DNA of 59,094 nt, counting the filler. It is 6 parts of 6 records of this genome, joined end to end, with 100 filler letters (N's around TTAATTAATTAA, not from the genome) between each part and the next. Parts side by side here need not be neighbours in the genome. Positions count along the whole stretch, not along the records: positions 9,931 to 23,564 come from SRR31147125_1030; 5 more parts are not named here. The stretch is one strand, 5' to 3'. The notes under the pieces are model-generated. The model saw nothing but the letters and a program-made list of their open reading frames with translations, did no database searches and was not told the origin of the DNA. Below are positions 1-52,868 of this stretch, one piece after another. Within the stretch, counting starts at the first letter, position 1. Each line of letters starts with the position of its first letter. The position numbers were made by a program, and so were the translations under genes.

Positions 1-918
1 TATAAGAACAACCTTACCATAAGGGAGAGCACAACTTTTGGTTTTGTGCGGATGATAGTAAAAAAAGAAAAGGTACCAAGTAATATAATCCAGTTTTATA
101 AGAAGACAGAGTTTAAAGAACAATTGCTCCCCATGTCAGGGTTTGATGCGATCTTTGTCCGCATCGATCCCCCTTTGGATGCAATTATGTTAAATTTTCT
201 GGATTCGGTACGGGATGACACATTTATTTTAAATGACATTGACGGACTTCGAAAAGCTAATAATAAACTTTACCCGGCGGCTTTTTACGATCCCAATAAT
301 GAAATAATACCTGTAACCCATGTATCGAAAAACAAGGAGTTTTTAAAACGGGTAATTCAAGAGTCGAACAAAGACAAGATGATATTGAAACCACTCGATG
401 GTTTTGGTGGGAGCGGTGTTATTGTGCTGGAAAAAGGAGCCCAGAAAAATATTAATTCATTGCTCGATTTTTATATATCAGGTGGTTCGGGTAGTAATTA
501 TGTTATTTTGCAGGAATATATAGAAGGTGCAGACGAGGGTGACGTAAGGGTATTGATGCTTAATGGAGAACCCATTGGTGCCTATAAAAGGGTTCCGGCA
601 GCAGACGATGTTCGGGCAAATATAAAAGCTGGTGGAAATGCGGTTAAGCACGCATTAACAAAAGCTGAGAAGAACATATGTAAAAAAATAGGCCCCAAAC
701 TCGCTGCCGATGGATTATACTTTGTTGGAGTAGATATTATTGCAGGAAAACTTATCGAAATAAATGTATGCAGCCCGGGTGGAATTACCCGTATTAATCG
801 CTTTAACAAAACAAAACTTCAAAAACAAGTAATCGATTTTGTTGAAAGTGTAGTTAACACAAAAGAATTTGCAATTCACAGAAAGCAGTATTTGCGTGGT
901 ATGATAGAGAATGGTTAA
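1..918 (+). CDS. gshB: Glutathione synthetase-like ATP-grasp ligase (5' partial)
   Basis: Frame is open from base 1. GshB-like motifs FVRIDPP, ILKPLDGFGGSGV, QEYI, GDVRV, GVDII, EINVCSPGG. Confidence 0.8.
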   Translation, partial: YKNNLTIRESTTFGFVRMIVKKEKVPSNIIQFYKKTEFKEQLLPMSGFDAIFVRIDPPLDAIMLNFLDSVRDDTFILNDIDGLRKANNKLYPAAFYDPNNEIIPVTHVSKNKEFLKRVIQESNKDKMILKPLDGFGGSGVIVLEKGAQKNINSLLDFYISGGSGSNYVILQEYIEGADEGDVRVLMLNGEPIGAYKRVPAADDVRANIKAGGNAVKHALTKAEKNICKKIGPKLAADGLYFVGVDIIAGKLIEINVCSPGGITRINRFNKTKLQKQVIDFVESVVNTKEFAIHRKQYLRGMIENG

Positions 919-2901
919 GCTCTCTTTAGAGGAGATAGTTCGCAAAATAGAACTGGGGCTCACATTTGAGGCCACTCCGCAGGATGATTCGTTTCGAATC
1001 AAAATAGAAGATTATATACCCTTTGTATGTGCAGCTATACATAATGGGCATAATTTTCAGGGTGATTTGGAGGCAAATTGCCTACTCGACGATTATGAAA
1101 GGTGGTATGAAGAAGATCCGCAAACAGCTTCTTTTATACGGTCGTTTCCCATTGTGATTGTTGGTAACGATTCAAGATATGAATACGATCTGAACCGTGC
1201 CCCAAGTGAAGCAATATATGATGTGGCCTGGGGTAGGAAGGTATGGGACAAACCGATTTCGGAAGAGCAAAAAACCAGGGGTTAGAAAAACACAATGGTT
1301 TTTATATGGTTGTTAATGCCCTAATTGCCAAGATAGAGCAATTATTCGGTGCCTGTATCGTATTCGATATCCATTCCTACAATTACAAACGCTATAACCG
1401 TTATCTGCCACTTTTTAACCTGGGAACAGATAAAATCGATCAAAAAAGATTTAAACCAATCATAAAATATTGGTTTAAAGAACTTGATAAAGTTGCATTG
1501 CCAGATATTGTTAATACAGTAGCTATAAACGATATTTTTTACGGACATGGATATTTCCTGTCATATATAACAGGGAACTTCAAGAATACCCTGGTTTTGG
1601 CTACTGAAATTAAGAAGGTATACTGCAACGAAGAAACAGGTGAAAATTATCCATTGGTAATTTCATTGTTAACTCAAGGTTTAAAACGTGCAATCCTCAA
1701 TACATCAACATATTATTCCAGAAAGCATACCCGGTTAACAGTTCGGAGGAAAGAGCGCTTGCTTTCCTCGGAACTCGATAAAGATATACTACAAGTTGAT
1801 AAGCAGTTGTTTAACCTGGTAAAGAATTTCGAAATTCTTAATTACGTAAACCCAATAAATCTCGAAGTAGAGAAGAAAAGATTTTATAAATCGAAATTTT
1901 TTGTAAATCCAAAATTCAGGTATAAACAACTGGTAATTGATCCGTTTGATTTTAAGCGTAAATTATATCAAATGCCAATTGAGAAAATCAAAGATATCAA
2001 CCTTCAAATATTATTTAAAGATGTTATTAATTCTTACGCTGATAAAGTAGACTTATTAACATCAATAGGTAAAACTACATTTGTTTATAATTCATTAAGA
2101 TATTTTGGGGAACCTTCTGAGCGCGATATAGGGAATGCTAATTTTTTACTTCATTGCCCTGATGTTGACGATGAATACGAAGAAATGTTTAATGTTACCG
2201 AGGTAAAAGAACTTTTTGAGAAAACGATTGCGGAATATGGGTTTGAGGCAAAAGTAGAAATTGCTAAAAATGTTGTATCAAAAGTACTTGTTCTTAACAG
2301 TAAAAAGTTGATTAGGTTAAGAGCAGACGCTACATTCTCCCGGAAAAACATGCATGCGCTTGCTAATCATGAAGTGGGGGTGCATATGGTAACGACTATC
2401 AACAGTAGGAATCAACCTCTAAATCTCTTGAGGATTGGGCTTCCGGTAAATACCCTCACGCAAGAAGGTCTCGCGATTTTAAGTGAATACTTATCAGATA
2501 ATTTATCTGTTTTTCGGCTTAAACAATTAGCCTTACGTGTATTAACCGTAAAAAACATGCTCAATGGTATGGAATTTAGGCAGGCTTTTGAGTATTTAAT
2601 GGATACAAAAATCCTTTCAGAAGATGAAGCTTTTTATATGGTTACCCGTGTATTCAGGGGTGGTGGTTTTACAAAAGATTATTTGTACTTAAAAGGATTT
2701 CGCTATTTGTTAAATTATTACATGGAAGGTCACCCATTAGATAATTTACTGATTGGCAAAACATCTTTAGGAAATATAGCAACTTTAAACGAACTGGTTG
2801 AAAGAAAACTTTTATTGCCACCCAAATATAAAACGCAGGCGTTTATCCAGCCAGTTAATATAAACCCGATTATGAAGTATTTAATAACTTCAATTCGTTG
2901 A
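911..2901 (+). CDS. N-formylglutamate amidohydrolase-like domain fused to a QEGLA-motif (DUF1704-type) metallopeptidase; split by a 1-nt frameshift near 1278-1283
   Basis: ORF 911-1285 (AIHNGH, EEDP, SRYEYDLNR) continues into ORF 1243-2901 (FDIHSY, NLGT, then HEVGVH and TQEGLA). Adding one base in AGGGGTTAG joins the frames. Confidence 0.8.
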
Positions 2902-2974
2902 TGTATTTAAAAGATTAAATTTGATAATGGTGTTTTATAAGTCTGGTTGCTTTTATTAAAAGAGTTGTTGCGTT

Positions 2975-4507
2975 ATGAATGAAATTGAAAACATAGAACT
3001 GGTTTATTTAAAGCTGGAAGATTATAAAGATTTAAAAGAAGCTATGATTGAGGCTTACGCCAATATGCCCAATGCTTATTGGAGAGAGGCTCATATCAAG
3101 ACCTTGATAGAAAAATTTCAGGAAGGCCAGGTCGTAATAAAGGTCAACAAACAGTTTGCGGGATGCGCATTGTCTATAATTGTTGATTATTCAAAATTTG
3201 AAAACAGGCATACCTACAAAGAAATTACCGATAATTACTCGTTTAATACCCATACCGATAGCGGGGATATGCTTTATGGTATCGATATTTTTATCCGGCC
3301 AAAATTTCGTGGGTTACGTCTGGGAAGGAGGTTGTACGACTATCGAAAAGAATTGTGCGAACGCTTAAATCTAAAGGGTATTGCTTTTGGTGGCAGGATA
3401 CCGAATTACTATAAATATTCAAAAGAATTAACTCCCAAAAAATACATTGACAAAGTAAGGCGAAAAGAAATACATGATCCTGTCCTGGATTTTCAAATGT
3501 CGAACGATTTTCACCCTGCCCGCGTGCTTCAGGGGTATCTCGAAGGTGACAAAGAATCGAAAGAATATGCTGTTCTGTTAGAATGGGATAATATTTATTA
3601 TGAAAAAGAAGTAAAACAAGCTTCGTCAATAAAAAAAGTGGTTCGCCTTGGGCTTGTTCAATGGCAGATGAGGCCGTATAAAAACCTCGAAGAATTGCTT
3701 CAGCAAGCAGAATATTTTGTTGATGCCGTATCAGGCTACAGAAGCGATTTTGCACTTTTTCCTGAGTTTTTTAATGCCCCTTTAATGGCAGAGAACAATC
3801 ACATGTCTGAACCCGAGGCAATTCGTGAGCTGGCAAAGCACACGTCAGAACTGGCAAAAAAGTTTTCAGAATTGGCCATATCGTACAACATAAATATTAT
3901 TACCGGAAGCATGCCCGAGCTTCGTGATGGTAAATTGTACAATGTTGGGTATTTATGCAAAAGAGATGGAACAGTTGAAAGCTTTGAAAAAATACATGTA
4001 ACTCCGGATGAAGCAAAAGTGTGGGGCTTACAAGGGGGGAAGCAGGTAAAAGCATTTGATACGGATTGCGGAAAGATAGGTGTTTTAATTTGCTATGATG
4101 TTGAATTTCCGGAGTTGAGTCGTTTGCTTGCAAATGATGGAATGGATATATTATTTGTGCCGTTTTTAACCGACACTCAAAATGGTTATTCGCGCGTTCG
4201 GAATTGTGCGCAGGCTAGGGCAATTGAAAATGAATGTTATGTGGCTATTGCCGGTAGTGTTGGCAACCTTCCCAAAGTCCATAACATGGATATCCAGTAT
4301 GCGCAATCCATGGTTTTTACCCCTTGCGATTTTTCGTTCCCTGCAAACGGAATAAAAGCAGAAGCAACCCCAAATACAGAAATGATTTTAATTGCCGATG
4401 TAGATATTGATATGCTTCGGGAACTTAATCAGTTTGGTAGCGTGAGAAATTTAAGAGACAGACGCAAAGATGTTTATGAGATAGTTAGAAATAAAAGTTC
4501 AATTTAA
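2975..4507 (+). CDS. Bifunctional GNAT acetyltransferase / carbon-nitrogen hydrolase (nitrilase family)
   Basis: GNAT motif RGLRLGRRL; nitrilase triad motifs FPEFF, EKIH, ICYDVEFPE. Confidence 0.9.
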   Translation: MNEIENIELVYLKLEDYKDLKEAMIEAYANMPNAYWREAHIKTLIEKFQEGQVVIKVNKQFAGCALSIIVDYSKFENRHTYKEITDNYSFNTHTDSGDMLYGIDIFIRPKFRGLRLGRRLYDYRKELCERLNLKGIAFGGRIPNYYKYSKELTPKKYIDKVRRKEIHDPVLDFQMSNDFHPARVLQGYLEGDKESKEYAVLLEWDNIYYEKEVKQASSIKKVVRLGLVQWQMRPYKNLEELLQQAEYFVDAVSGYRSDFALFPEFFNAPLMAENNHMSEPEAIRELAKHTSELAKKFSELAISYNINIITGSMPELRDGKLYNVGYLCKRDGTVESFEKIHVTPDEAKVWGLQGGKQVKAFDTDCGKIGVLICYDVEFPELSRLLANDGMDILFVPFLTDTQNGYSRVRNCAQARAIENECYVAIAGSVGNLPKVHNMDIQYAQSMVFTPCDFSFPANGIKAEATPNTEMILIADVDIDMLRELNQFGSVRNLRDRRKDVYEIVRNKSSI

Positions 4508-7490: not shown

Positions 7491-8515
7491 ATGCCGATCA
7501 AGGGTTGAGAATATGTTAAAAAAGTCATATAAAAAGCTGGAAATCAGCAATTTAAACTTGTTAAAGCCCTTAAGAATCAGTATATTAAGGTCAACTTTAT
7601 ATATGATTCTCAAGGACAAGGACGACAAGTTAGTAAGAATTTATTTTCTTATCTGTGATTATTTTAATGAATTGCAATATTACTGTGAGCGGTTTAGTAA
7701 TAATAACAAGCCAGAATTTACAGACCAGGAGATTATGACAATATATCTGTATGTAATGCAACATGAGGGGCACACAAAGATTAAGGACATTCATAGGTTT
7801 GCCTCAGAACACCTAAGAGGCTGGTTTCCAAAGCTTGGGAGCTACCAAGCCTTCAATAATCGCCTCAACCGTTTGGGAGGGGCATTTAATCGGCTAGTAG
7901 AAATATTGCTAACAAGCAGTGTGCCTGATGATTGCATTCTAAACCAGAGCGTGTTGGACTCTATGCCTATTATTACCTGCTCAGGAAAACGTTCAGCCAA
8001 AGTTGCCTCTGAAGTTACAGATAAGGGTTATTGTTCGACCAAGAACATGTATTATTTTGGAATGAAGTTACATATGCTTGGTTTTAGACGTGATGGAAAA
8101 CTGCCCCATCCAGAGCAGATACTATTTACCCCTGCTTCTGTCAATGATATATCCGTCTACAGACAAGCGTGGGCGCATATTGAAAACCGCGTATTCTTTG
8201 GTGATAAAATATATATGGATCACGACCTCAACCAACAAATGATAATTGAACAGAATTCAGAAATGTACACCCCGGTTAAGGGTGTCAAAGGGATGCCTGA
8301 TATTATCAAACAAAGGCTAAAGGCAGCTGACGACTTATTTTCAACAGCGGTATCACGCATAAGACAACCAATCGAAGCAATCTTTAACTGGTTGATTCAA
8401 AAAGTAGACATCCAGAGGGCAAGCAAGGTCAGGTCGACAGAAGGTTTAATGATCCATGCATTCGGTAGACTTTCTGCTGCCTTTATTAATTTAAATTTTA
8501 ACTCTTGATTCACAT
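7491..8515 (+). mobile_element. IS982-family insertion sequence
   Basis: Transposase bounded by imperfect inverted repeats (ATGCCGATCAAGGGTTGA at 7491; reverse complement of the right end ATGTGAATCAAGAGTTAA ending 8515). TAATT flanks both sides (7486-7490, 8516-8520). Confidence 0.75.
7603..8508 (+). CDS. IS982-family DDE transposase (alternative start 7513)
   Basis: FTDQEIMT, SYQAFNNRL, LDSMP, YYFGMKLH, GDKIY, RQPIEAIF. Confidence 0.85.
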   Translation: MILKDKDDKLVRIYFLICDYFNELQYYCERFSNNNKPEFTDQEIMTIYLYVMQHEGHTKIKDIHRFASEHLRGWFPKLGSYQAFNNRLNRLGGAFNRLVEILLTSSVPDDCILNQSVLDSMPIITCSGKRSAKVASEVTDKGYCSTKNMYYFGMKLHMLGFRRDGKLPHPEQILFTPASVNDISVYRQAWAHIENRVFFGDKIYMDHDLNQQMIIEQNSEMYTPVKGVKGMPDIIKQRLKAADDLFSTAVSRIRQPIEAIFNWLIQKVDIQRASKVRSTEGLMIHAFGRLSAAFINLNFNS

Positions 8516-9830: not shown

Positions 9831-9930
9831 NNNNNNNNNNNNNNNNNNNNNNNNNNNNNNNNNNNNNNNNNNNNTTAATTAATTAANNNNNNNNNNNNNN
9901 NNNNNNNNNNNNNNNNNNNNNNNNNNNNNN
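9831..9930. other. Artificial contig linker
   Basis: N run with central TTAATTAATTAA (stops in all six frames). Confidence 0.98.
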
Positions 9931-12714
9931 TTTTTTAAGTATTGTCCTGTATAACTTCTATCAACTTTTGCAACTTGCTCAGGTGTACCTTTAGCAACGA
10001 TTTCACCACCAGCAGCACCACCTTCTGGACCAAGGTCAATAATGTAGTCTGCATTTTTAATGACATCAAGATTATGCTCAATAACAACCATAGTAGCACC
10101 GTCATCAACAATACGGTGTAACACTTCAAGAAGACGTTTCACATCATCTGTATGAAGACCAGTGGTTGGTTCATCAAGTATATAAATTGTTTTATTTGTA
10201 ATCTTTCGATAAAGCTCACTTGCAAGTTTTACACGTTGGGCTTCACCACCAGATAATGTGGTTGCTGATTGTCCAAGTGTAATATAGCCAAGACCAACAT
10301 CATGTAGTGTCTTTAGTTTATCATAGATTTTAGGATGGTTTTCGAAGAAATCCATCGCATCATCTATTGTTAAATCTAGGACATCTGCAATATGTTTACC
10401 TTTATATTTAATTTGTAATGTCTCATGATTATATCTTGTCCCATGACAAACCTCACAAGGCACATACACATCAGGCAAGAAATGCATCGATATTTTTTTA
10501 AGTCCATCACCACGGCATGCTTCACATCTACCGCCTTTGACATTAAATGAAAATCTACCTTTTTTATAACCTCTTGCTTTTGCTTCATTGGTTGTTGCGT
10601 ATAAATCTCTAATATTATCAAATACGCCTGTATATGTTGCAGGATTAGATCGCGGTGTTCTACCAATCGGTGATTGACTAATCTCAATCACGCGATCAAT
10701 TAAATGATGATCATCAATAAACATATGTTCACCAGGCACATCTTTAGATTTATAATACTTTTGATGTAGTCCTTTATATAATACATCATTAACAAGTGAT
10801 GATTTACCACTACCAGAAACCCCTGTGACAACTGTAAGTTTTCCCATTGGAAAACCAACAGTTAAATCTTTTAAGTTGTTTGCTTTTGCGCCAACAACTA
10901 ATATTTCATCATTTAAACCTTTTCTTCTCTTTCTAGGAACATCAATTTGCATATCACCTTTTAAATATTGACCAGTAATACTGTTTTTATTATTCATCAC
11001 TTCTTTAGGTGTACCTGCGGCTACCACTTCTCCACCAAATTTACCTGCTTTAGGACCGATATCAATTAAGTAATCACTGGCAAGCATTGTTTCATGATCA
11101 TGTTCAACCACAACTAACGTATTACCTAAATCACGCATTTTTTGTAGTGTCTTAATTAATCGGTCATTATCTTTTTGATGAAGTCCGATAGATGGCTCAT
11201 CTAAAACATATAAAACACCTGTTAATTTAGATCCAATTTGTGTCGCAAGTCTAATACGTTGTGCTTCACCGCCTGATAGTGTTCCTGCTTGTCGATGAAG
11301 TGTTAAATATCCAAGCCCAACATCATTTAAAAATGTGAGTCTATTAATAATTTCTTGAAGTGCTAAATGTGCAATTTTCTTTTGCTCAACCCCAAGTTCT
11401 AAGTTTTCTAAAAAAGTTATTTCATCTTCAATTGATAAACGTGTAAGTTCATCAATATTTTTTTGACCAACTTTAACACTTAGCGCTTGTTCGTTTAATC
11501 TTGCTCCATGACACACAGGACAAACTGATTCAGTCATAAATCCTTCAATCCATGTTCTGATCCACTCAGATGTCGTCTCACGATATCTTCTTGTTAAGTT
11601 TGTAATAATACCTTCATAATAATCATATGATTTATGATGGTTGCCTGATGATGATTTTAAATTGAAATGAATTTTATCTTTTGAACCATATAAAATATAA
11701 TCTTTTTCTTGTCTTGTGAGATCTCTCATTGGTTTACTCATATCGATATGATAGAAGTCACATAATTGCTCAACCATTTGACTTGCAAGGTTTTCTTCAA
11801 AATTATTTTTATATGGAATAATCCCACCACCTAAAACTGGTTTTTCAGGATTGACAACAAGTGATTCTGAAACTTCTAATTTTAAACCTAATCCATTACA
11901 GTGTGGACAAGCACCAATCGGTGTATTAAACGAGAATAGTCTAGGCTCTAAATCAGGAATTGTAAAGTCTGAATCTTCACATGCATAGTTTTGATTAAAT
12001 GATAAAATATCTTTCCCATTAACTAAAGCTTTCACGCGTCCTTTAGATAGTCTAGCAGCAAGTTCTACTGCATCATAAACACGTGAACGAATGCCTTCTT
12101 TGATAATAATACGATCAACAATAATATAAAAATCATGATTTTGATTTTTATCAAGTGTTGGAAATTCATCTAATGTGACAAGTTCTCCATCAACATAAGC
12201 TCTTGTAAAACCTTCTTTTAAGTATTGTTCAGCCTGTTTCTTATGTGTGCCTTTTTGTCTTTCAACAATTGGACTCATAATCATCACTTTACTACGTTCT
12301 TCTAATGAGATAATGCGCATTGTCATCTCATCAATGGTTTGTTTAGAAAGAGGTTCATCCGTACCAGGACAATAAGGTGTCCCTACACGTGCATATAATA
12401 AACGTAAATAATCATAAATCTCAGTCACAGTCCCCACTGTTGATCTTGGATTATTCGATGTCGTTTTTTGATCAATACTTATCGATGGACTTAGTCCTTC
12501 GATGCGATCAACATCAGGTTTTTCAAAATTACCTAAAAATTGACGTGCATAAGAAGAAAGACTTTCCATATACCTTCTTTGGCCTTCTTGATAAAGTGTA
12601 TCAAAAGCAAGTGATGATTTACCACTACCAGAAATACCTGTCATCACGACAAGTTTGTTTTTAGGTATATCAATATCAATATTTTTTAAATTGTTTTCTC
12701 TTGCCCCATGTACT

Positions 12715-12728
<14 letters not shown>
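9931..12728 (-). CDS. uvrA: Excinuclease ABC subunit A (3' end cut at the contig edge)
   Basis: [10 protein letters not shown], two Walker A Gx[15 protein letters not shown] twice, zinc fingers. Confidence 0.98.
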
Positions 12729-14762
<2,034 letters not shown>

Positions 14763-14792
14763 TTATGAGTAGTAATAAAATATTCCAAATAA

Positions 14793-14801
14793 TGATATAA
14801 T
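14793..14801 (+). promoter_or_regulatory. Extended -10 promoter for the abi gene
   Basis: TGATATAAT about 30 nt upstream of the ATG, with a GGGGAG RBS-like sequence. Confidence 0.5.
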
Positions 14802-14832
14802 TAAAAATATACACTTGGGGAGATGAACAATA

Positions 14833-15717
14833 ATGGCAAATGCATATACGTTAACTACAAAAGAAAAAGACTTGTTAGAACGTTTTATCAACGGTAGACA
14901 CAACTATTATTATTTTAAAAACTTCTTAGATATAACCTCAGGTAATTTAAGAGATGCAATTGCTTTATATGAATTTGATCGTAGACTTAGAATTGTTCTT
15001 TTTAATTATATATTAAAATTTGAATTAATCTTAAAACATGATTTCTTGACATTTGCTGAGCGTGCAGGTGCTAGTACAACTTTTTGGAATAATAGCAGTT
15101 ACTTTTTAAGGGCCGCAACTATTGTCTCAAAAAATCATACTTACTCAAAATTTGATGCTTTAGTTAAAAAAACAACTCAAGACATTACACATAAAGTTTT
15201 TTCAAATTCTCCCATACAAAACGTGAATATATTTTATGCAACATCATTCGGAACTTTTTTAAGATACTTCGAACTACTGGAACATCGGTACAAAAATGAT
15301 TTCATTTTGAAGCATTTCAACTCAAAATTAGACTATTTAAATTTAAAAAAATATTTGAATTCAATCAAATTAATTAGAAACAGATGCGCACACAGCAACC
15401 ATATAGTCTCACCCAAATTAAGATTAGAGCAAAAAAGAACTAAATTAACCAATTTTTCGAATGAATTCAATATTTTTTATACCGAATTCTCAAAGTGTAT
15501 ACAATTTATTTACAGAACACTCACCATTAAAGATAAACAAGCTTTTAAAAGAGACCTCTTGATCATATTAGATAAATATATGAAAATATCTAACAAATAT
15601 TATAAACAACATACTATTGATTATAATTTGAATGCTAAACTCCGTAAAATTTGGCGTGTAAAACTACCTTTATTAAACAAATTAATTTACAAATTGAAAT
15701 TCTATGTTAAAATATAA
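14833..15717 (+). CDS. Abi_2/AbiF-family HEPN protein (abortive infection RNase toxin)
   Basis: LYEFDRRLR...ILKFELILK, SFGT and the HEPN RxxxxH motif IRNRCAH. Oriented opposite to all neighbours. Confidence 0.85.
   Translation: MANAYTLTTKEKDLLERFINGRHNYYYFKNFLDITSGNLRDAIALYEFDRRLRIVLFNYILKFELILKHDFLTFAERAGASTTFWNNSSYFLRAATIVSKNHTYSKFDALVKKTTQDITHKVFSNSPIQNVNIFYATSFGTFLRYFELLEHRYKNDFILKHFNSKLDYLNLKKYLNSIKLIRNRCAHSNHIVSPKLRLEQKRTKLTNFSNEFNIFYTEFSKCIQFIYRTLTIKDKQAFKRDLLIILDKYMKISNKYYKQHTIDYNLNAKLRKIWRVKLPLLNKLIYKLKFYVKI
15686..15713 (+). promoter_or_regulatory. Putative sigma70 promoter inside the 3' end of the abi gene
   Basis: TTTACA (15686-15691), 16-nt spacer, TG-n-TAAAAT (15705-15713). 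Confidence 0.45.
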
Positions 15718-15719
15718 AT

Positions 15720-15770
15720 AGATAATCAGACATAGGTGCTGGTTGCACTCCAGATAGGGGTGCTTTTTTT
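15720..15770 (+). ncRNA. Candidate AbiF-associated antitoxin small RNA
   Basis: GC-rich island GGTGCTGGTTGCACTCCAGATAGGGGTGC-T7 in very AT-rich DNA, with overlapping pairings GGTGC/GCACT, CTGG/CCAG and GCACTCC/GGGGTGC followed by a U tract. Confidence 0.5.
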
Positions 15771-15789
15771 ATTTTACATTTTTAGAATG

Positions 15790-15826
15790 AAAAGAGATAC
15801 CAATCCATCGATTGATATCTCTTTTT
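15790..15826. terminator. Terminator downstream of osmC (probably bidirectional)
   Basis: AAAAGAGATACCAAT-ccatcg-ATTGATATCTCTTTT. Confidence 0.65.
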
Positions 15827-15833
15827 CGTTTAA

Positions 15834-16277
15834 TTATTCAATAACTATACCTGAACGTTTAATCGGAACACCATTTTCTAATGTATCCGTTACTGGACAT
15901 GTTTTTTCAACAAAATCAGCAAATTGTTCAACTTTTTCTCTAGGTTCATTAGTTTTGAAATACATATTGTATCTAATTTCACTAAACCCTTTTCTAACAT
16001 CTGGATTTCTTCCAGTAAAACCATCAGGATCTAAATCACCTTCAATTTCAACTCTAAATCCATCATATTTAAAATCATGATGTTGCGCGAATGCAGCAAC
16101 AACAATCGCTTGGCATGCACCAAGAGATGTCAGTAATGCCTCCACTGGATTAATACCTTTATCTGTACCACCCATTTGTTTAGGCTCATCATATAATATC
16201 TTAAATTGTCTTGAACTTGTTTCAACTAATAATCCTTCTGCTTGTTTAGTAGCAGTTGCTTTAAATACTTGTTTCAT
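15834..16277 (-). CDS. OsmC/Ohr-family protein
   Basis: DEPKQMGG, NPVEALLTSLGAC, TCPV. Confidence 0.9.
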   Translation of the reverse strand: MKQVFKATATKQAEGLLVETSSRQFKILYDEPKQMGGTDKGINPVEALLTSLGACQAIVVAAFAQHHDFKYDGFRVEIEGDLDPDGFTGRNPDVRKGFSEIRYNMYFKTNEPREKVEQFADFVEKTCPVTDTLENGVPIKRSGIVIE

Positions 16278-16369
16278 ATCATCACTTCCTTTACGTATGC
16301 TATATTAACACTTACATATAGTAAGTTCAACGGTTATGCATGTCTACTTAAAATAAGCGAATATCTAAA

Positions 16370-17572
16370 CTATTTTATTTTAATTTCTTTATAGAATATG
16401 GATTTTTTACGATAATTGTCTGCATATTTTGTATAGGTCATATATAAATATTTTCTCGCTCTCGTCATCGCGACATACATTAAACGGCGTTCTTCTTCAA
16501 GTGTCATATATGTTTGTGTAAAAGCTGAAGGTATTTCTTGATCTTCTAGTCCAATAATAAACACGCAATCAAACTCTAATCCTTTTGCTTGATGCATACT
16601 TAGTAATTGAAGTCCATATTTTGTATCAATAAATGTTTTTTTAAGTGCCTTTTTTAAATGTGACACCCTTAAGTGATTGCGATAAAGAATCGCAATCTCT
16701 GAAGGCTTTATTCCTTCTTTGATACAATTTTTATATTGCTTTAATATAAAAGTTTTTTCTTCGTTGATATCTTCAAACACATATTTCTTAACTTCAAATC
16801 GGTCATTTCTATATGGTTTTAATACTTTTTTATATAACCTATGATTTCTCTTAATAAAGCCATTAGCAAGACTTAAAATTTGAGGTGTTGAACGATAATT
16901 TAGATCTAGAATTTCAACGTCTGCTTGGTATTCTTTTATAAAACGATCAATCACAAAAACATCAGCACCTCTAAACTGATAAATACTTTGATCAGGGTCT
17001 CCAACCGCTAAGACATAGCTATCCTTACCAATAAGTTTTTTAAGTATATGATATTGGAGTTTATTCGTATCTTGAAACTCATCAATAAAAATATATGTAT
17101 ATGTTTTTTTATATTTTTCTAAATACTCTAAATAGTCTAATAATAAGTCATCAAAATCCTTTACCCCGAGTTGATATAATTTCATTTGATACGCATCAAA
17201 AATCTTAGGTTTTCTCATATGAAATAAACTATTCTTATATTTAGATATGTTCAGTAATTCCCTTTGATCAAAACCTAATGTTTCATCATTGATTAACTGA
17301 TACTCTTTATAAACCGTTTTTAATTGATTGAGTGCAAGACTATGGAATGTATAAATATTATTGATCTTTTGATTTAATCTTGTACGCATCTCCTGTGCTG
17401 CTTTTCTTGTGAATGTTAGGCATAGGATATCATCTTCACAAACATCTTGATTCAACAAGTATTTAATACGTTCTACAATGACTCTAGTTTTACCACTACC
17501 AGCACCCGCTAACAAAAAAAGAAAGTGTTTATGTGTATAAACAACTTTCTTTTGCTTTTCATTTAATGTCAT
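16370..17572 (-). CDS. Minimal UvrD/Rep-family SF1 helicase (~400 aa)
   Basis: All core motifs present: AGAGSGKT, TFTRKAA, TFHS, DEFQD, VGDPDQSIYQFRGA, NYRST, HQAKGLEF, EERRLMYVAMTRA. RBS GGTGA precedes the ATG at 17572. Confidence 0.85.
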   Translation of the reverse strand: MTLNEKQKKVVYTHKHFLFLLAGAGSGKTRVIVERIKYLLNQDVCEDDILCLTFTRKAAQEMRTRLNQKINNIYTFHSLALNQLKTVYKEYQLINDETLGFDQRELLNISKYKNSLFHMRKPKIFDAYQMKLYQLGVKDFDDLLLDYLEYLEKYKKTYTYIFIDEFQDTNKLQYHILKKLIGKDSYVLAVGDPDQSIYQFRGADVFVIDRFIKEYQADVEILDLNYRSTPQILSLANGFIKRNHRLYKKVLKPYRNDRFEVKKYVFEDINEEKTFILKQYKNCIKEGIKPSEIAILYRNHLRVSHLKKALKKTFIDTKYGLQLLSMHQAKGLEFDCVFIIGLEDQEIPSAFTQTYMTLEEERRLMYVAMTRARKYLYMTYTKYADNYRKKSIFYKEIKIK

Positions 17573-17616
17573 CTTAATCACCCTATATATCATAGGGGAT
17601 ATAGATTTATTTTACT

Positions 17617-18393
17617 TTATGCGAAAACTGATGTAATCAACAAATAATAAGTCACAATAACAAATATCACACTATAAAGTGTCCCGATTAAATAATATTC
17701 AGAGAATTTTTTATCCTCTAATTGCTTAAATCTAGCAATAGATTTCGCAGCAATGACAACCGTTAACCCAATCCATTGTCCTGCAACAAGCAATACCATC
17801 ATAATAATTCTTTCCATAGATCCTATCAAAGCACCAGTGTTTAACTGATCTTTGTCTTGTTCTTTTTCAGCACTATATTGATTAAAATAGATTTTAAATA
17901 CTTGATTTGCGACTATGGATAGGACAATAAACCCAAGCACATAAATACTTGTTTGTCCATCAACCGCTGAGTCAATGATAGATCTTCTAACCCCGTCGTT
18001 TGCATACTTGATTTCACTCCAAACAGCAAGTGTAAAATAGATGTATATCGCATGATATGCAATATATCTAATTTGAATATATCGACGAATAAAATTATTT
18101 TTTTCTTCATCTGTTTGAGACTGTTGATAGCCACGAAATTTTGTGATGTTTGAATCTATGAATAATCTTAACGCAACCAATACAATCTTTAAACCAATGG
18201 CAAATAATATTCTTAGCCAAATATCAAATTCAGTTGGTATAAACCATAATAAGAATAAGAAACTCCCTGCTATTTGGATAATCAAATAACGGCCAAGTTC
18301 TTTTAAATTCCATTTGTCTTCAATAATTGTTTGGCTTTTTCTAAACCATACAAACTCTACTAAAACATATAACACTAAAAATAAATAAATCAT
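17617..18393 (-). CDS. DUF3307-family membrane protein
   Basis: Multi-TM; C-terminal GALIGSMER, AAKSIARF, EYYLIGTL; directly follows satD. Confidence 0.75.
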   Translation of the reverse strand: MIYLFLVLYVLVEFVWFRKSQTIIEDKWNLKELGRYLIIQIAGSFLFLLWFIPTEFDIWLRILFAIGLKIVLVALRLFIDSNITKFRGYQQSQTDEEKNNFIRRYIQIRYIAYHAIYIYFTLAVWSEIKYANDGVRRSIIDSAVDGQTSIYVLGFIVLSIVANQVFKIYFNQYSAEKEQDKDQLNTGALIGSMERIIMMVLLVAGQWIGLTVVIAAKSIARFKQLEDKKFSEYYLIGTLYSVIFVIVTYYLLITSVFA

Positions 18394-18404
18394 AAATGCC
18401 CCTC

Positions 18405-19031
18405 CTAAATATATTTTTTAATGATTTCTAAATTTTCTAAATATAAGTAATAATATGTTCTTTTTAGTTTTCCACTCACTGTTGATGGACTATAGTTAAA
18501 TTGCTTTGCTAAATCTTTTTGTACAAAATGATCATTTAAACCATATGTTTTAATTAATTCATATACAAAAGACTTTTGTGATAAAGTCCATTGATTTGTA
18601 ATCACTTGATTATTGATTAATAATTGATTAATCAATAATTGTTCTTTTTCACTGATGCCCTTGATATATATAGACATATGTTTTCTTTCATTTTCTTTAA
18701 TGATATCCAGAGCATCTCTTGCATGCCACCAAACTGGTCCGTCACTACTTCCATCTTCATAATTAAATGAGAGTTCACCAATACCGATACCAAATCTAAT
18801 ATCTACATGTGCCATCACTGCGATAATATCATGGATCATATCAAAAATATGAGCAGGACTGTTGAGTAGCACTTGAAAATCATCGCCTTGCATAATCTTC
18901 ATCGGTTTAACCATATGTGCTTGATATTTAATATTTATATCATTAATCACATCAATAAGACGCTCTTGTACTTCTTTTCTATATTTTAACTTTCTCGATG
19001 CAATTAAATCTCCAATGATTGCATAATACAT
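18405..19031 (-). CDS. satD: SatD-family protein (nucleotidyl cyclase-like domain plus C-terminal HTH)
   Basis: AIIGDLIASR, QGDDFQ, RFGIGIG, DGPVWWHAR; HTH QKDLAKQFNYSPSTVS. RBS GAGGTGG before ATG 19031. Confidence 0.85.
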   Translation of the reverse strand: MYYAIIGDLIASRKLKYRKEVQERLIDVINDINIKYQAHMVKPMKIMQGDDFQVLLNSPAHIFDMIHDIIAVMAHVDIRFGIGIGELSFNYEDGSSDGPVWWHARDALDIIKENERKHMSIYIKGISEKEQLLINQLLINNQVITNQWTLSQKSFVYELIKTYGLNDHFVQKDLAKQFNYSPSTVSGKLKRTYYYLYLENLEIIKKYI

Positions 19032-19059
19032 ACATACCACCTCTTGCATCAATTATATC

Positions 19060-19104
19060 ATAATTCGTATTTTTTTGCATATTTATAATAATTCGTATTT
19101 TTTT
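19060..19104. repeat. Perfect 17-bp direct repeat in the satD promoter
   Basis: ATAATTCGTATTTTTTT at 19060-19076 and 19088-19104. Confidence 0.85.
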
Positions 19105-19117
19105 ACTAATATAAGAT

Positions 19118-21211
19118 TTATCGTACTTTTTTAAGTGACGGATGACTCTCTAATATATTTTTAATGCCATGTGGCATCGCAAAAGCAATTTTTGCAATAT
19201 CATCATTGACTGATACAACAACGCCTGTTCCAAAGACTTGATGCTCTACTTTATCACCTGTTTTTAATATATGTCCGTTACTAATCGTTTGCTTGCCTTG
19301 ATAAAACTTAGGCGGTTGTGTTTCAATCAATCGTGATTCTTTAATAAATCTAGAAGGATACCCAAACTTCAACTCACCATATTGCATACGTTTATTGGCA
19401 TGTGTCATATAAAGTCTTTCTTTTGCTCTTGTCATACCTACATATGCTACACGTCGTTCTTCTTCAAGTTCAATAGAACTCATCATTGCATTATTATTTG
19501 GAAATAATCCTTCTTCTAAAGCAACCATAAATACAACTTTAAACTCTAATCCTTTAACTTGATGGTAAGTTGCTAATTTAACTTTATCTGTATCATCAAC
19601 ATCTTGATCCAAGTCGCTATATAATGCGATTTGATCAAGTTGTTGTTTAAGTTTCTCATAAAAGTTACCTTCATAATACATATCACCACGTACAAATACA
19701 GATTGAAGTTCTCTTAAGTTATTAATGCGATCATCAGCTTTTTCTGTATTTTCCGCTTTTAACATATCAACATATCCTGTGATATGCATCAGTACAGGCA
19801 TAATTTCTTGTAAATTTGTCATATCAAAAAATGCTGATGAAATATCTTCAATCAGTTTTTTAAATGTTTTAAGACTCGTTAAAGCTTTTGAACGTAGATC
19901 GACATAATCAATAGCCGCAAACAAAGATATACCAAGTTCTCTTGCTTTTTCTTTTAGTTTTTGAATACTAACCTTACCAATTGAACGTTTTGGCACATTA
20001 ACCACACGTTCAAAGAAAAAATCTTGATGTGGATCTACAGCAAGTCTTATATATGCAAGTGCATCTTTAATCTCTTTTCGTTGATAAAAAGATAGCCCAC
20101 CATAAATAATATATGAAATACTTTCTTTAATGAGTGTATCTTCAAACAATCTTGATAATGCATTATTACGATATAATATCGCAAAATCATCATATCTGTA
20201 GTTTTCATATCGCACTAAACGTTCTATTTCATTAACCACATAAAATGTCTCATTATAATCACTATCAGCGGCATAATATGTTATAGGTTCGCCTAAACCT
20301 AGATCACTTTCTAAGTTTTTAGCAGTTGGTCTATTAAAATTATTTGCAATCAGCTTATTCGCTGATTTTAATATTTGATTGGTTGAGCGGTAATTCTTAT
20401 CAAGAATAACCGTTTCAGCTTGATAATCTTTAATAAATCTTTCACTATTTTGATAACTTGCACCTCTAAAAGAATAAATCGATTGATCAGGATCCCCTAC
20501 AACAAATACATTCTTGTGTCGCGCACCAAGTGTACGTAGTATTTTATATTGAATAACATCAGTATCTTGAAACTCATCAACTAAGACATGTTGAAATTCA
20601 GTTTGATATCTGTCTTTAATATGAGGATAATCAGATAATAATTCTAATGTATAGATCAATAAATCATCAAAATCAACGAGTTGATTATCTCTTAAATAAA
20701 ACTGATAAGCTTTATATATTTTTTCTTCATCAGATCTTTCAAACTCAGGCAGTCTTTGTGATTTAAATAAAGAAATAAGCCCTTTTAATTGTTTCACTGA
20801 AAATTGTTTAATATCTAGACCCATATCTTTAATGATATCTGTTAATATCTTTTTGCCATCATCTTCATCAATCACCGTAAATGTAGGTTTGTACCCATAA
20901 GGAAGTTCTGCGATATGTCTTCTAAGTATTTGTAGCCCAAATGCATGGAACGTGTATAGCCATAAATCAGATGCATATGGCCCTGTCATATCACTGACTC
21001 TTTGTTTCATTTCACGTGCAGCTTTATTTGTAAATGTAATGGCTAAAATATGTTTAGGTGCAACACCATTCATGATTAAATAAGCTATTCTTGTTGTTAA
21101 TGTTTTAGTTTTTCCTGTACCCGCACCAGCAACAACAAAAAGCGGTCCACCAGGATGGATGACCGCTTTTAATTGAGATTCATTTAAGGTAGCTAGATAA
21201 TTTTCCATCAT
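19118..21211 (-). CDS. pcrA: ATP-dependent DNA helicase PcrA
   Basis: Full-length UvrD/PcrA motifs including 2B (NVPKRSIG) and C-terminal Tudor-like GDKVEHQVFG. Confidence 0.92.
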   Translation of the reverse strand: MMENYLATLNESQLKAVIHPGGPLFVVAGAGTGKTKTLTTRIAYLIMNGVAPKHILAITFTNKAAREMKQRVSDMTGPYASDLWLYTFHAFGLQILRRHIAELPYGYKPTFTVIDEDDGKKILTDIIKDMGLDIKQFSVKQLKGLISLFKSQRLPEFERSDEEKIYKAYQFYLRDNQLVDFDDLLIYTLELLSDYPHIKDRYQTEFQHVLVDEFQDTDVIQYKILRTLGARHKNVFVVGDPDQSIYSFRGASYQNSERFIKDYQAETVILDKNYRSTNQILKSANKLIANNFNRPTAKNLESDLGLGEPITYYAADSDYNETFYVVNEIERLVRYENYRYDDFAILYRNNALSRLFEDTLIKESISYIIYGGLSFYQRKEIKDALAYIRLAVDPHQDFFFERVVNVPKRSIGKVSIQKLKEKARELGISLFAAIDYVDLRSKALTSLKTFKKLIEDISSAFFDMTNLQEIMPVLMHITGYVDMLKAENTEKADDRINNLRELQSVFVRGDMYYEGNFYEKLKQQLDQIALYSDLDQDVDDTDKVKLATYHQVKGLEFKVVFMVALEEGLFPNNNAMMSSIELEEERRVAYVGMTRAKERLYMTHANKRMQYGELKFGYPSRFIKESRLIETQPPKFYQGKQTISNGHILKTGDKVEHQVFGTGVVVSVNDDIAKIAFAMPHGIKNILESHPSLKKVR

Positions 21212-21222
21212 CTACCTTCTTT

Positions 21223-22860
21223 CTATTTTTTATAACTTGATTTAAGTGGTACGATTTCGTTAAAAATCAGTTGATCTTCTGTTGAATCATCATCAACATT
21301 AAAGTATCCCACTCTCATGAATTGATATTTGTCTTGTGGCTTACTAGAGCCGATTGCAGCTTCTACATAACCATGTTTTACTTCTAATGAATCATCATTA
21401 AATCTTTCGAGTAAATCTTTTGATTCGTCATCATCTAACATCGGATGATAGAAATTGATTTGTGCTTTTTTAGCTGTACTTGCTTCTACGAAATGAATGG
21501 TACCATTTGGTTTTCTATCTTTAAATCCTGATCCACTTTTCGTTTCAACATCATATGTTGCAATCACTTCAACAATTTCGCCATTTTCATCATATTTGAC
21601 TTCATTTGCTTTAATAAAATATGCATGGAATAATCTAACTTCAATACCTAAAGCTAATCGCTTATATTTTTTATTTGGTTTTTCTAAGACAAAATCATCT
21701 TTATCAATATATAAATGTTTAGAAAAAGCAATTTTTCTTGAACCCATTTCAGGATGATCTTGATGATAATCTACATCAAGATATTCAATCTTATCGTCTG
21801 GATAATTTGTGATTGTGACTTTTAATGGATTGACAACACCCATCACACGCATAGCTTTATCTTGTAAATCAGATCTAACAGTTGCTTCTAACATATCAGC
21901 ACTCACTGTTGAATTTACTTTGGATAATCCTGTTGATAAAATAAAGTTTCTAATCGCATCAGGTGTATATCCTTTTCTTCTCATGCCTGAAACTGTAGGC
22001 ATTCTAGGATCATCCCATCCACTAACTTTATGGTTTTCAACAAGTGCTCTTAAGAATCTTTTACTAAGCACTGTGTTTTCAACATTTAAACGACCAAATT
22101 CAATTTGTCTAGGAACGCTAGGGATTTCAGTTTCTCTAACGACCCAATCATATAATGGTCTATGATCTTCGAATTCTAATGAGCATAGTGAATGTGTAAT
22201 ACCTTCAATCGCATCTTCTAAAGGATGTGCATAATCATACATTGGATAAATGCACCATTTATCACCTTGACGGTGATGATGCGCATAGACAATACGATAA
22301 ATCGCAGGATCTCTTAAATTCATATTTGGAGATGCCATATCAATTTTTGCGCGAAGTACACATTCGCCTTCTTTGTATTTACCAGCGCGCATATCTTCAA
22401 AAATCTTTAAATTCTCTTCAATACTTGTATTTCTATAAGGAGAATCAACACCTGGTGTATTGACGTCACCTCTATTTTTCGCCATATCTTCTGGTGATTG
22501 AAAATCAACATAAGCAAGGCCTTTTTTAATGAGTACAATCGCTCTTTCATACATTTCATCAAAATAGTCAGATGCAAAATATATATTTGCTGGTTCATAG
22601 CCTAGCCATTTGATATCTCTTTTAATCGCTTGTACGAAAACATCGTCTTCTTTTTCTGGATTTGTATCATCATATCTTAAATTTGTATATCCACCAAAAT
22701 TTTTGGCAAGTTCAAAATTGGTAATAATCGCACGTGCATGCCCAATATGTAAGAACCCATTAGGTTCTGGTGGGAAACGTGTGACAATACCATCATGTTT
22801 TTTACTTTCTAAATCTTGTTCCATAATTGTTTTAATAAAATTAGAATGATTTTCCATCAT
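21223..22860 (-). CDS. glnS: Glutamine--tRNA ligase
   Basis: TRFPPEPNGFLHIGH, YPMYDYAH, LSKR, GWDDPRMPT, QFMRVGYF. Confidence 0.95.
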   Translation of the reverse strand: MMENHSNFIKTIMEQDLESKKHDGIVTRFPPEPNGFLHIGHARAIITNFELAKNFGGYTNLRYDDTNPEKEDDVFVQAIKRDIKWLGYEPANIYFASDYFDEMYERAIVLIKKGLAYVDFQSPEDMAKNRGDVNTPGVDSPYRNTSIEENLKIFEDMRAGKYKEGECVLRAKIDMASPNMNLRDPAIYRIVYAHHHRQGDKWCIYPMYDYAHPLEDAIEGITHSLCSLEFEDHRPLYDWVVRETEIPSVPRQIEFGRLNVENTVLSKRFLRALVENHKVSGWDDPRMPTVSGMRRKGYTPDAIRNFILSTGLSKVNSTVSADMLEATVRSDLQDKAMRVMGVVNPLKVTITNYPDDKIEYLDVDYHQDHPEMGSRKIAFSKHLYIDKDDFVLEKPNKKYKRLALGIEVRLFHAYFIKANEVKYDENGEIVEVIATYDVETKSGSGFKDRKPNGTIHFVEASTAKKAQINFYHPMLDDDESKDLLERFNDDSLEVKHGYVEAAIGSSKPQDKYQFMRVGYFNVDDDSTEDQLIFNEIVPLKSSYKK

Positions 22861-22898
22861 ATCACCTCAAGTCTTTCTTATTATATAAGAAAAACAAA

Positions 22899-22936
22899 AA
22901 AACAACAAGGCAAATCCAAGATATGCTTGTTGTTTT
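22899..22936 (-). terminator. Terminator after the MATE gene
   Basis: AAAACAACAAG ... CTTGTTGTTTT. Confidence 0.55.
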
Positions 22937-22946
22937 ATCGTTTTAT

Positions 22947-23564
22947 TTATTCATCAATTAATTTAACATTCATCCATCTGCGTTTATACCATCGAAGAGC
23001 CATCGATGAACCTCTCACATTTTCGTCAATCGCTTGTGCAATAAATACACCTAAAATACCCAATTCTAAACGAATCCCTAAAATATAGGTAAATAACACA
23101 GATATCCCAAGCATAGATATCACAGCCATCACAACAGGAAATATCGTATCTCCTGCTGATCGAAGTGCTGTAATATATATCATATTCATTGAACGACCTA
23201 TTTCAATAGCGATTGATATATAAATCACTTGTCTAATCATTTTAATAATAATTGGGTCGGTTGTAAAAATACCAATCACTTGATATGCAAATATGTTTAA
23301 TAAACCTGTAACCATCACAATGGTTATAAATGCGACTTTAATGGTTTTAAGCGTATGCTTATAACCAATATTAGGATTTTTTTCACCAATGTGATAACCT
23401 ACAATAATTGAATTACCCTGTGCAAACGCAAAACTAAAAATAAAAACAAAAGATAAAATTAATGAAATATATGATTGAGCAATGACTGCTTCTGGTTGCA
23501 TTTGGTTAATAAAATATAAAATAAGAATTTGAGATATATTATACATAATGTTTTCTGCTGCAGC
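22947..23564 (-). CDS. MATE-family efflux transporter, C-terminal part (5' partial)
   Basis: IVGYHIGEK, ALRSAGDT, LGILGVFIA, DENVRG. Confidence 0.85.
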   Translation of the reverse strand, partial: AAAENIMYNISQILILYFINQMQPEAVIAQSYISLILSFVFIFSFAFAQGNSIIVGYHIGEKNPNIGYKHTLKTIKVAFITIVMVTGLLNIFAYQVIGIFTTDPIIIKMIRQVIYISIAIEIGRSMNMIYITALRSAGDTIFPVVMAVISMLGISVLFTYILGIRLELGILGVFIAQAIDENVRGSSMALRWYKRRWMNVKLIDE

Positions 23565-23664
23565 NNNNNNNNNNNNNNNNNNNNNNNNNNNNNNNNNNNN
23601 NNNNNNNNTTAATTAATTAANNNNNNNNNNNNNNNNNNNNNNNNNNNNNNNNNNNNNNNNNNNN
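23565..23664. other. Artificial contig linker
   Basis: N run with TTAATTAATTAA. Confidence 0.98.
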
Positions 23665-32440: not shown

Positions 32441-32540
32441 NNNNNNNNNNNNNNNNNNNNNNNNNNNNNNNNNNNNNNNNNNNNTTAATTAATTAANNNN
32501 NNNNNNNNNNNNNNNNNNNNNNNNNNNNNNNNNNNNNNNN
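32441..32540. other. Artificial contig linker
   Basis: N run with TTAATTAATTAA. Confidence 0.98.
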
Positions 32541-47619: not shown

Positions 47620-47719
47620 NNNNNNNNNNNNNNNNNNNNNNNNNNNNNNNNNNNNNNNNNNNNTTAATTAATTAANNNNNNNNNNNNNNNNNNNNNNNNN
47701 NNNNNNNNNNNNNNNNNNN
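47620..47719. other. Artificial contig linker
   Basis: N run with TTAATTAATTAA. Confidence 0.98.
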
Positions 47720-52768: not shown

Positions 52769-52868
52769 NNNNNNNNNNNNNNNNNNNNNNNNNNNNNNNN
52801 NNNNNNNNNNNNTTAATTAATTAANNNNNNNNNNNNNNNNNNNNNNNNNNNNNNNNNNNNNNNNNNNN
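52769..52868. other. Artificial contig linker
   Basis: N run with TTAATTAATTAA. Confidence 0.98.

Follow-up and report, generated by a model that had tools for sequence, protein, structure and literature searches.

The window analysed here (59,094 nucleotides (nt), six joined parts of one genome, of which positions 9,931 to 23,564 come from record SRR31147125_1030) carries on its plus strand an abi gene for a 294-amino-acid (aa) HEPN protein of the AbiD/F (Abi_2) group, followed directly by a candidate gene for a small RNA of about 50 nt. By analogy with AbiF systems, the two probably form a two-part, type III-like toxin/RNA-antitoxin module with the RNA 3′ of the toxin gene under its own promoter. 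The small RNA gene is very likely real, and on the same analogy its product would on balance be the antitoxin. We infer that the RNA is transcribed and binds the protein, and that the protein is toxic and acts against phages. There is about an even chance that the RNA is a new ~50-nt family, outside Rfam 15, serving as antitoxin of a "reversed" type III-like system with the toxin gene first, the RNA gene under the stronger promoter and a shared terminator. RNA partners of AbiF-type HEPN toxins have been recognised only recently, and Cas13 is considered to have evolved from AbiF-type HEPN and RNA systems. An AbiF-type HEPN protein with a cis-encoded RNA is already known; the layout and the RNA family are absent from Rfam 15.

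The small RNA unit and its conservation

The promoter predicted for the small RNA (15686-15713, plus strand; promoter scanner and relatives) consists of a -35 box TTTACA, a 16-nt spacer and a TG-extended -10 box TAAAAT, and lies in the last codons of abi, where a sequence-only reading of this DNA had placed a promoter-like TTTACA-16-TG.TAAAAT. The RNA unit of ~51 nt (15720-15770, plus strand; covariance model match and fold) begins with the leader AGAU and continues with hairpin 1 (15724-15744, plus strand; fold and covariation), in which AAUCAG (15724-15729) pairs with CUGGUU (15739-15744) around the 9-nt loop ACAUAGGUG. Hairpin 1 directly abuts the hairpin of an intrinsic terminator (15745-15770, plus strand; scanner and covariation), made of the stem GCACUCC/GGGGUGC (15745-15763) and U7 (15764-15770), so that the terminator stem GCACTCC/GGGGTGC and T7 of the sequence-only reading were also found in place. 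This stem has seven pairs (five G-C), a loop of 5 and T7; 15745-15770 only is an intrinsic terminator by definition, and it is common to the abi messenger RNA (mRNA) and the small RNA. The RNA from 15720 to 15763 (44 nt) folded at -15.3 kcal/mol (z = -2.88), and 2 of 200 shuffles folded as well.

Without other loci the unit in the window is indistinguishable from an ordinary terminator, and it is the comparison across loci, and not the window itself, that makes it significant. Terminator-like sites in the 2-kilobase (kb) stretch numbered 3 against 0.6 expected. It was considered whether the element is only the intrinsic terminator of abi, with the hexamers and the upstream hairpin present by chance in AT-rich DNA: 15745-15763 with T7 is a textbook terminator, promoter-like sites were no commoner than in shuffles, and no transcript was seen, though the three RNA runs searched were no test. 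This explanation is very unlikely in the light of the relatives' DNA, which was taken from species genomes (L001-L007), metagenomes (L008-L018) and a class-wide genome search (L026, L027).

By eye, the unit was present downstream of the gene and on the same strand in all 20 fetched subclade loci, including three in which the gene is broken (L004, L006, L016). In the relatives it comprises a -35/-10 promoter, ~6 nt, and a 45-58-nt RNA starting AGAU, AGAA, AGGA or ACAU, whose first hairpin is joined with no spacer to a G+C-rich terminator hairpin, with a U-run after it. In 19 of 21 loci exactly 6 nt separated the best promoter match from the RNA start, and in 15 of 21 this match agreed with the consensus at 9 or more of 12 positions, while the distance from stop codon to unit varied from 2 to 108 nt; in L013 and L026 the stop codon lies inside the -35 box. 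The keeping of a second hairpin with a covarying stem in 20/20 loci, the promoter spacing of 6 nt despite the varying stop-codon distance, and the persistence of the unit beside broken genes and beside a gene remnant (L028) all argue against a terminator and nothing more. The L028 case (2910-3070) is an orphan small RNA behind a ~25-codon 3′ remnant of a subclade abi gene, an RNA that outlives its gene. It adjoins a 541-aa open reading frame (ORF) with a P-loop-like GKNNSGKSS motif.

Compared with the window, the closest relative with DNA (L008) encodes a protein that is 61% identical from an ORF that is 66% identical (583/883 columns), with 53% identity over the 120 nt upstream and unrelated sequence past the terminator. 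Over the first 29 nt of the RNA the identity is complete (29/29), more than a terminator of an ORF at 66% would suggest, and the changes in the terminator stem compensate each other, while its loop differs. In L016 the first 32 nt of the RNA are identical to the window's, with yet another terminator loop. Among 13 loci, upstream regions showed similarity in 1 of 78 pairs and downstream regions in 9 of 78; the 136 nt upstream of abi in the window are unstructured (z +0.30, no better than shuffles). No conserved protein partner was found among 353 neighbouring ORFs of 14 loci, in keeping with the earlier statement that a protein antitoxin is missing; the sole cross-locus ORF match was an opposite-strand frame adjoining the RNA element, and in L012 overlapping it.

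For structure, 12 RNA sequences were aligned with MAFFT (A5) and a covariance model (R1) was built from this alignment; a 16-sequence alignment (A7) was fitted to R1 and therefore leans towards it. The two-hairpin structure was paired in 93.6% of the cells of A5, compared with 79.2 ± 1.9% in shuffles (0 of 500 reached the observed value) and 31-50% with slid partners. Both-sided changes were seen at 8 of 13 pairs in A5 (helix 1, 3/6; helix 2, 5/7), with hairpin 1 paired in 97% of cells, and at 9 of 13 pairs in A7 (helix 1, 4/6; terminator, 5/7), in which 92.0% of all cells and 96% of those in hairpin 1 were paired. The closing G-C of hairpin 1 was identical in the 14 A7 sequences that have letters there (two are gapped); in the terminator stem, pairs 1 and 2 (G-C and C-G) were invariant in 16/16. 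The homologue alignment proposed with the sequence-only reading thus showed an element that is conserved and covarying, and the self-contained ~50-nt unit that it had described at the 3′ end of the gene is borne out by the 20/20 homologues, the fixed promoter spacing and the covarying stems.

The pseudoknot-like pairing proposed in the same reading fared differently. CTGG/CCAG was paired in 51.2% of cells, the same as in slid controls, and GGTGC/GCACT in 73.3% compared with 63.1 ± 3.1% in shuffles, mostly as G-U, with one of the five pairs unpaired in 7 of 12 sequences. The pseudoknot fold was dropped, and hairpin 1 was assigned as AAUCAG/CUGGUU instead. At 15736-15749 of the window (A5 columns 18-22 with 28-32) bases on the 3′ side of the hairpin-1 loop can form pairs with the terminator's 5′ arm, and an alternative, terminator-competing conformer is possible.

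Small RNAs beside toxin genes are often antisense regulators in type I systems, and a small RNA adjoining a toxin gene might likewise pair with the abi mRNA around its translation start. Predicted duplexes of the RNA with the cognate region from -50 to +30 had a mean of -17.6 kcal/mol, against -17.0 ± 5.0 kcal/mol for non-cognate regions (10 loci). Antisense control of the abi start was rejected on this ground, cognate pairing being no better than non-cognate; the RNA moreover lies on the same strand as the gene and nearly all of it is locked in the two hairpins, and a type I-like role was given hardly any weight.

When R1 was run over the 59-kb window, a single match was returned (15720-15771, 51.4 bits, expectation value (E) 1.8e-11). 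Over 137 kb (the window plus 21 loci) it found the unit in 18 of 20 loci at E ≤ 0.1, and its other matches there were two spurious ones at E ≥ 1. With filters off, sequences outside A5 scored E values of 2.3e-7 (L028), 8.5e-4 (L006), 4.7e-3 (L003), 0.028 (L001) and 0.16 (L004), so that of six independent sequences outside R1 four fell at E < 0.1 and five at E < 0.5; L007 was missed, and the same promoter and two hairpins are present in it. An RNA of the type GGUGG...AGCCGCC occurs in L001, L003, L004 and L006. As a negative control, 30 canonical Abi_2 loci (104,665 bases) were searched at E ≤ 1 with 0 matches, which again speaks against a plain terminator. In whole genomes, the top R1 match stood beside the subclade gene in G181, G167 and G001, and the units of G003 and G005, which have the more divergent RNA type, were not recovered by R1 at genome scale. 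G167 had a second match (E 4.7e-6) immediately behind the 3′ remnant of a subclade gene, whose frame ends in ...YSKYGGKQSIDPTMISKLHKK.

A scan of viral sequence for the exact 25-nt RNA core gave 0 matches. A degenerate pattern of the hairpin junction was found in at least 119 viral stretches; none of the 80 viral loci fetched from these was matched by R1 at E ≤ 0.01, and on this ground the stretches are taken as chance matches in G+C-rich phage DNA. Rfam 15 families gave no match at gathering score in the whole window, and none at E ≤ 10 around the element (14500-16100), the abiF family RF03085 included. The comparison with the Rfam abiF model that had been proposed for the element therefore gave nothing, and RF03085 was likewise without a match in eight relatives' loci at E ≤ 1 or 5; these absences are weakly informative, because no positive control for RF03085 was obtained. 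In 19 canonical Abi_2 loci (L030-L048, with ~1.5-kb flanks where the contig allowed) RF03085 had no match at E ≤ 0.1. It seems that only some members of the family are covered by the curated abiF motif, and there may be other unrecognised RNA partners.

The abi gene and its protein

The abi gene (14833-15717, plus strand; ORF, profiles, alignment and fold) runs from ATG at 14833 to TAA at 15715-15717, with no TGA inside and no in-frame stop, and translation tables 11 and 4 give identical products. A ribosome-binding site GGGGAG (14817-14822, plus strand; direct reading) lies 10 nt before the ATG. Upstream of it, an extended -10 promoter-like site TG-A-TATAAT (14793-14801, plus strand; direct reading) has no good -35 box and leaves a leader of only ~25 nt; the promoter scanner demands a -35 match, so this site was unlisted. 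The product (P0001) matched Abi_2 (PF07751) over residues 36-191 with 62.8 bits against a cut-off of 25.6 (E 6.8e-17), and its best PADLOC model was AbiD (1.9e-14). The HEPN Rx4H motif RNRCAH (R182-H187) is encoded at 15376-15393 (plus strand); in A2, a protein alignment and profile of 20 full-length subclade members, R182 and H187 are invariant in 20/20, and the Rx4-6H catalytic motif is intact.

When 1.84 billion representative proteins were scanned, 53 matches were obtained at E ≤ 1e-3 and 26 at E ≤ 1e-10, and a word-indexed protein search gave five matches to P0001. On this sequence evidence the protein is a member of a narrow subclade of the AbiD/F group. The subclade was present in 3 of 399 genomes sampled from one bacterial class, in which canonical Abi_2 genes were found in 84 of 300 genomes, and in 1 of 401 genomes of the other phylum sampled, namely the query genome only. 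First scans of genome contigs and metagenome contigs with the single protein or a 5-sequence alignment found no relative, and the A2 profile had no match in viral contigs. In phages, tblastn gave one weak match (26.9% identity) with no Rfam or R1 signal at its locus, and in 72,556 plasmids tblastn of P0001 gave none.

Searched against solved proteins, the A2 profile had one good match, 8vz6_A, at E 2.4e-10. An AlphaFold2 model of P0001 (predicted local distance difference test (pLDDT) 91.0, predicted template-modelling score (pTM) 0.88) was compared with known structures by Foldseek, and the top match was again 8vz6_A, "PbAbiF dimer bound to ncRNA" (non-coding RNA), with probability 1.00, E 1.6e-5, template-modelling (TM) scores of 0.55/0.54 and 16% identity; it was the sole match below E 0.001, the next being Cas13d at E 0.13. 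By profile and by predicted model, the protein is thus a sequence and fold relative of the AbiF in the AbiF-ncRNA complex 8VZ6. A homodimer prediction, in which the alignment was not used, scored 0.01 against a mark of 0.32, which speaks neither for nor against a dimer.

The basic hydrophobic C-terminal tail named in the sequence-only reading is present. It is encoded at 15658-15717 (plus strand; alignment, model and relatives' DNA), overlaps the small-RNA promoter, measures ~20 residues and is limited to the window's close clade (4 of 20 sequences of A2). The last 20 residues were poorly modelled, with pLDDT 54 and 43. In P0001 and P0003-P0005 the invariant residues of the tail are YK and YVKI, and those between them vary; in the window, L008 and L016 the codons for YK are the -35 box and those for YVKI (HVKI in L016) the TG-extended -10 box. 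In other clades the promoter begins at or past the stop codon. From these sequences the tail would represent an ORF grown by ~20 codons across the RNA promoter, with the same bases used as codons and as -35/-10 boxes.

Genomic surroundings

The abi gene stands alone on the plus strand, with the minus-strand genes ligA and uvrA upstream and a convergent, minus-strand osmC downstream, so the earlier description of a lone plus-strand Abi_2 gene with an intact RNRCAH among minus-strand genes holds. The separate osmC terminator of that description also exists, as a hairpin of 16 base pairs at 15790-15825 (minus strand; fold) with -20.5 kcal/mol. The abi gene has a G+C content of 26%, its neighbours have 30-33% and the window as a whole 34%.

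The gene, an insertion whose G+C (26%) is below that of its neighbours (30-33%), could be carried by a mobile unit, and the hairpins might then act as DNA, for example as its recombination or attachment (att) site. One relative lies ~100 nt from a transfer RNA (tRNA) gene, and the module occurs in metagenome-assembled genomes (MAGs) with the label Spirochaetales as well as in others labelled Erysipelotrichaceae or Holdemania. Such a DNA-level role is given next to no credence: the element is always on the sense strand of the gene, after the promoter and before the U-run, the window holds no second copy as an att pair would need, and G-U pairs are common in the stems (for example, six G-U at one helix 1 pair), a free use in keeping with RNA but not with double-stranded DNA.

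Two relatives' loci showed further features. In L026 a tRNA gene (1190-1264) lies ~200 nt upstream of the abi homologue, which is consistent with insertion at a tRNA-linked hot spot. In L002, from a Spirochaetales MAG, Rfam DUF3800-I (50.1 bits, above the gathering score) and DUF3800-XI (35.9 bits, just below it) were matched at 1358-1478 and 2610-2658, 0.3-1.6 kb upstream of the abi homologue, which suggests an island of RNA-associated defence genes.

In the window, ligA (12715-14762, minus strand) is split by a single frameshift in the run gatgaaaaagaaaaagtc (window 13840-13900); the adenylation-domain frame stops at 13752 and the OB/Zn/HhH/BRCT part stays open in another frame, which is either a sequencing or assembly indel in the A-run or a real disruption of an essential gene. 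Beyond osmC, the minus strand from 16370 to 19052 encodes a short UvrD-like helicase (407 aa), a 258-aa protein without a Pfam match and a SatD-family protein, a trio that might be another accessory or defence cassette adjoining the abi insertion; it is followed by a full-length PcrA/UvrD (697 aa). A DDE transposase (DDE_Tnp_1) is encoded at 7513-8508 (plus strand), ~6 kb from abi. At 46-4507 (plus strand) there is a cluster of a glutathione-synthetase/RimK-type ATP-grasp protein, a MATCAP-family peptidase homologue, MATCAP being a family unusual in bacteria, and a carbon-nitrogen hydrolase, and a 1276-aa ORF at 47905-51735 (plus strand) matched no Pfam family at E ≤ 1e-5. A scan of the whole window for tRNA and transfer-messenger RNA genes found 0. 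Two 44-N runs around 12 readable bases, apparently masked sequence, occur at 9831-9930, 23565-23664, 32441-32540, 47620-47719 and 52769-52868, and one of these five sites cuts the 3′ end of uvrA.

The "Mollicute" host given in the sequence-only reading is unsupported. The window is open under table 11, with ORFs of 1276, 949 and 920 codons; TGA is the stop codon in 7 of the 33 frames that have 200 codons or more; and the genes include a sigma-54 activator, several PAS/GAF histidine kinases, an extracytoplasmic-function (ECF)-type sigma factor, glutathione synthetase (GshB), glutaminyl-tRNA synthetase (GlnRS) and a rhamnosidase. Because of the open table 11 frames, the use of TGA as a stop and this gene content, the host is not a Mollicute that reads TGA as tryptophan.

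Comparison with known systems and the role of the RNA

A PbAbiF-AbiFr type III-like system, PDB 8VZ6, was reportedly described by Zilberzwige-Tal et al. 2025. The module resembles this pair and AbiFCd-RCd22 in its ~300-aa Abi_2/HEPN protein with Rx4H, for which 8VZ6 is the best PDB match in sequence and fold, in its short structured cis RNA with an intrinsic terminator and its own sigma-A-type promoter (here a predicted one), and in the lack of a protein antitoxin. According to the available sections of PMC12373285, AbiFCd of C. difficile phi027 is toxic and is neutralised in cis and in trans by RCd22, an RNA of 88-132 nt with two abiF motifs, whose transcription begins 168 nt ahead of the ATG and for the most part stops short of the gene, and the PbAbiF homodimer binds two ncRNAs. 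Bulge nucleotides of AbiFr block the RNase site, as given in the accessible part of PMC12737573. The module differs from these systems in its RNA, which has 45-58 nt and one specific hairpin, in contrast to the 88-132 nt and two abiF motifs that the same portions report for AbiF RNAs. The expected AbiF layout (an upstream ncRNA, co-transcribed, with a terminator between) is not what was found, the leader being ~25 nt and the RNA 3′. The protein shares 16% identity with 8VZ6 at TM 0.55, and the subclade is narrow (53 representatives in 1.84 billion).

The lactococcal AbiD/AbiD1/AbiF/AbiD-like group likewise consists of a protein and a short RNA, and its conserved non-coding flank is upstream and more conserved than the gene, as far as the available text of PMC13064643 tells. 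Here too the RNA is better conserved than the ORF (29/29 nt vs 66%) and the PADLOC model is AbiD; the conserved flank is upstream in that group as it is described there, and downstream in the present module. The relation to the lactococcal group is a distant one, because P0001 had no match in the 72,556 plasmids. With classical type III toxin-antitoxin systems (ToxIN, AbiQ, CptIN, TenpIN) the module shares an endoribonuclease-inhibiting RNA, putative here, and an RNA-to-toxin ratio that would be set by the arrangement of terminator and promoter. Their antitoxins are tandem repeats upstream of the toxin gene in the account available from PMC12373285; the present toxin fold is unrelated to theirs, and the RNA is one copy, downstream, with no tandem array. 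From an ordinary Rho-independent terminator the element differs in its conserved promoter, its leader, its covarying extra hairpin and its restriction to one protein subclade. Full-text literature searches turned up no downstream RNA for Abi_2/AbiF, and the primary AbiF-ncRNA survey (Cell 2025) may include cases.

Several points weigh against a toxin/RNA-antitoxin module. The RNA lies downstream of the gene, and it is upstream in the AbiF and RCd22 systems and, as stated in the part of bioRxiv 10.1101/2024.05.05.592566 that was available, also in AbiV. There is no tandem array in 14500-16000, and the element is single-copy in the window. The RNA has no RF03085 match, a model that was also silent in 151 genomes and the 19 canonical Abi_2 loci. 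With 12 and 16 sequences the alignments are small, the fitting of A7 to the model favours that model, and relatedness alone can beat shuffles. Promoter-like sites in the 2 kb around the element numbered 10 against 15.6 expected, which is not significant in the window alone, and the 3′ hairpin is a perfectly ordinary terminator for the abi mRNA too. From three oligo-dT RNA runs with the same species label, 0 reads fell on the stretch, which is no test of expression.

The module would work as follows. The abi gene would be transcribed from its weak extended -10 promoter, and the mRNA would end at the shared terminator, carrying the RNA element at its 3′ end, as is to be expected because there is no terminator before 15745. 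The second, better promoter in the last 11 codons (15686-15713) would start at about A15720 and yield an RNA of 45-51 nt, with a 4-nt leader, a 6-base-pair hairpin with an A/U-rich loop and the abutting terminator hairpin. By homology to PbAbiF-AbiFr (8VZ6) and RCd22-AbiFCd, the RNA would bind the HEPN protein and block its Rx4H RNase site, and its A/U-rich hairpin-1 loop may occupy the HEPN site as a pseudo-substrate, by analogy with the AbiFr bulge in 8VZ6. The promoter of the small RNA would supply free RNA in excess, in addition to the copy at the 3′ end of the abi mRNA, and shut-off of host transcription by a phage, or decay of the RNA, would free the RNase, so that the infection aborts.

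Alternatively, the RNA might work with the HEPN protein in another capacity, as a cofactor or activator, a sensor of infection or an mRNA-stabilising 3′ stem-loop. The available text of PMC13064643 has the lactococcal AbiF flank essential for the antiphage effect and not only for tolerance of the gene; the element is the 3′ end of the abi mRNA, with no terminator between the stop codon and 15745; and the pairing of the loop with the terminator arm (73.3% vs 63.1 ± 3.1%) could reflect a second conformation. In the relatives that have been solved and tested, however, the RNA serves as an inhibitor according to the sources cited; a conserved dedicated promoter at fixed spacing would be needless for an mRNA stabiliser; and the pairing that would make the second conformation is mostly G-U, with one of five pairs unpaired in 7/12 sequences. 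A role other than antitoxin is on these grounds unlikely.

If the toxin/RNA-antitoxin reading is true, each toxin mRNA would carry one antitoxin copy at its 3′ end, and a HEPN gene followed by a hairpin RNA with its own promoter would add a second, independent layout to the AbiF-type systems regarded as ancestors of Cas13 and its array. The module seems to pass between bacterial phyla as one piece. A different RNA fold without an Rfam entry would mean that the pairing of protein and RNA in this group is less fixed than the descriptions so far suggest. The module would also supply a new annotation signature, namely promoter, 4-nt leader, hairpin and terminator directly after an Abi_2 gene, and a very small model pair (294 aa and ~50 nt) for the inhibition of HEPN RNases by RNA. 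"Orphan" Abi_2 genes may hide RNA partners inside apparent terminators.

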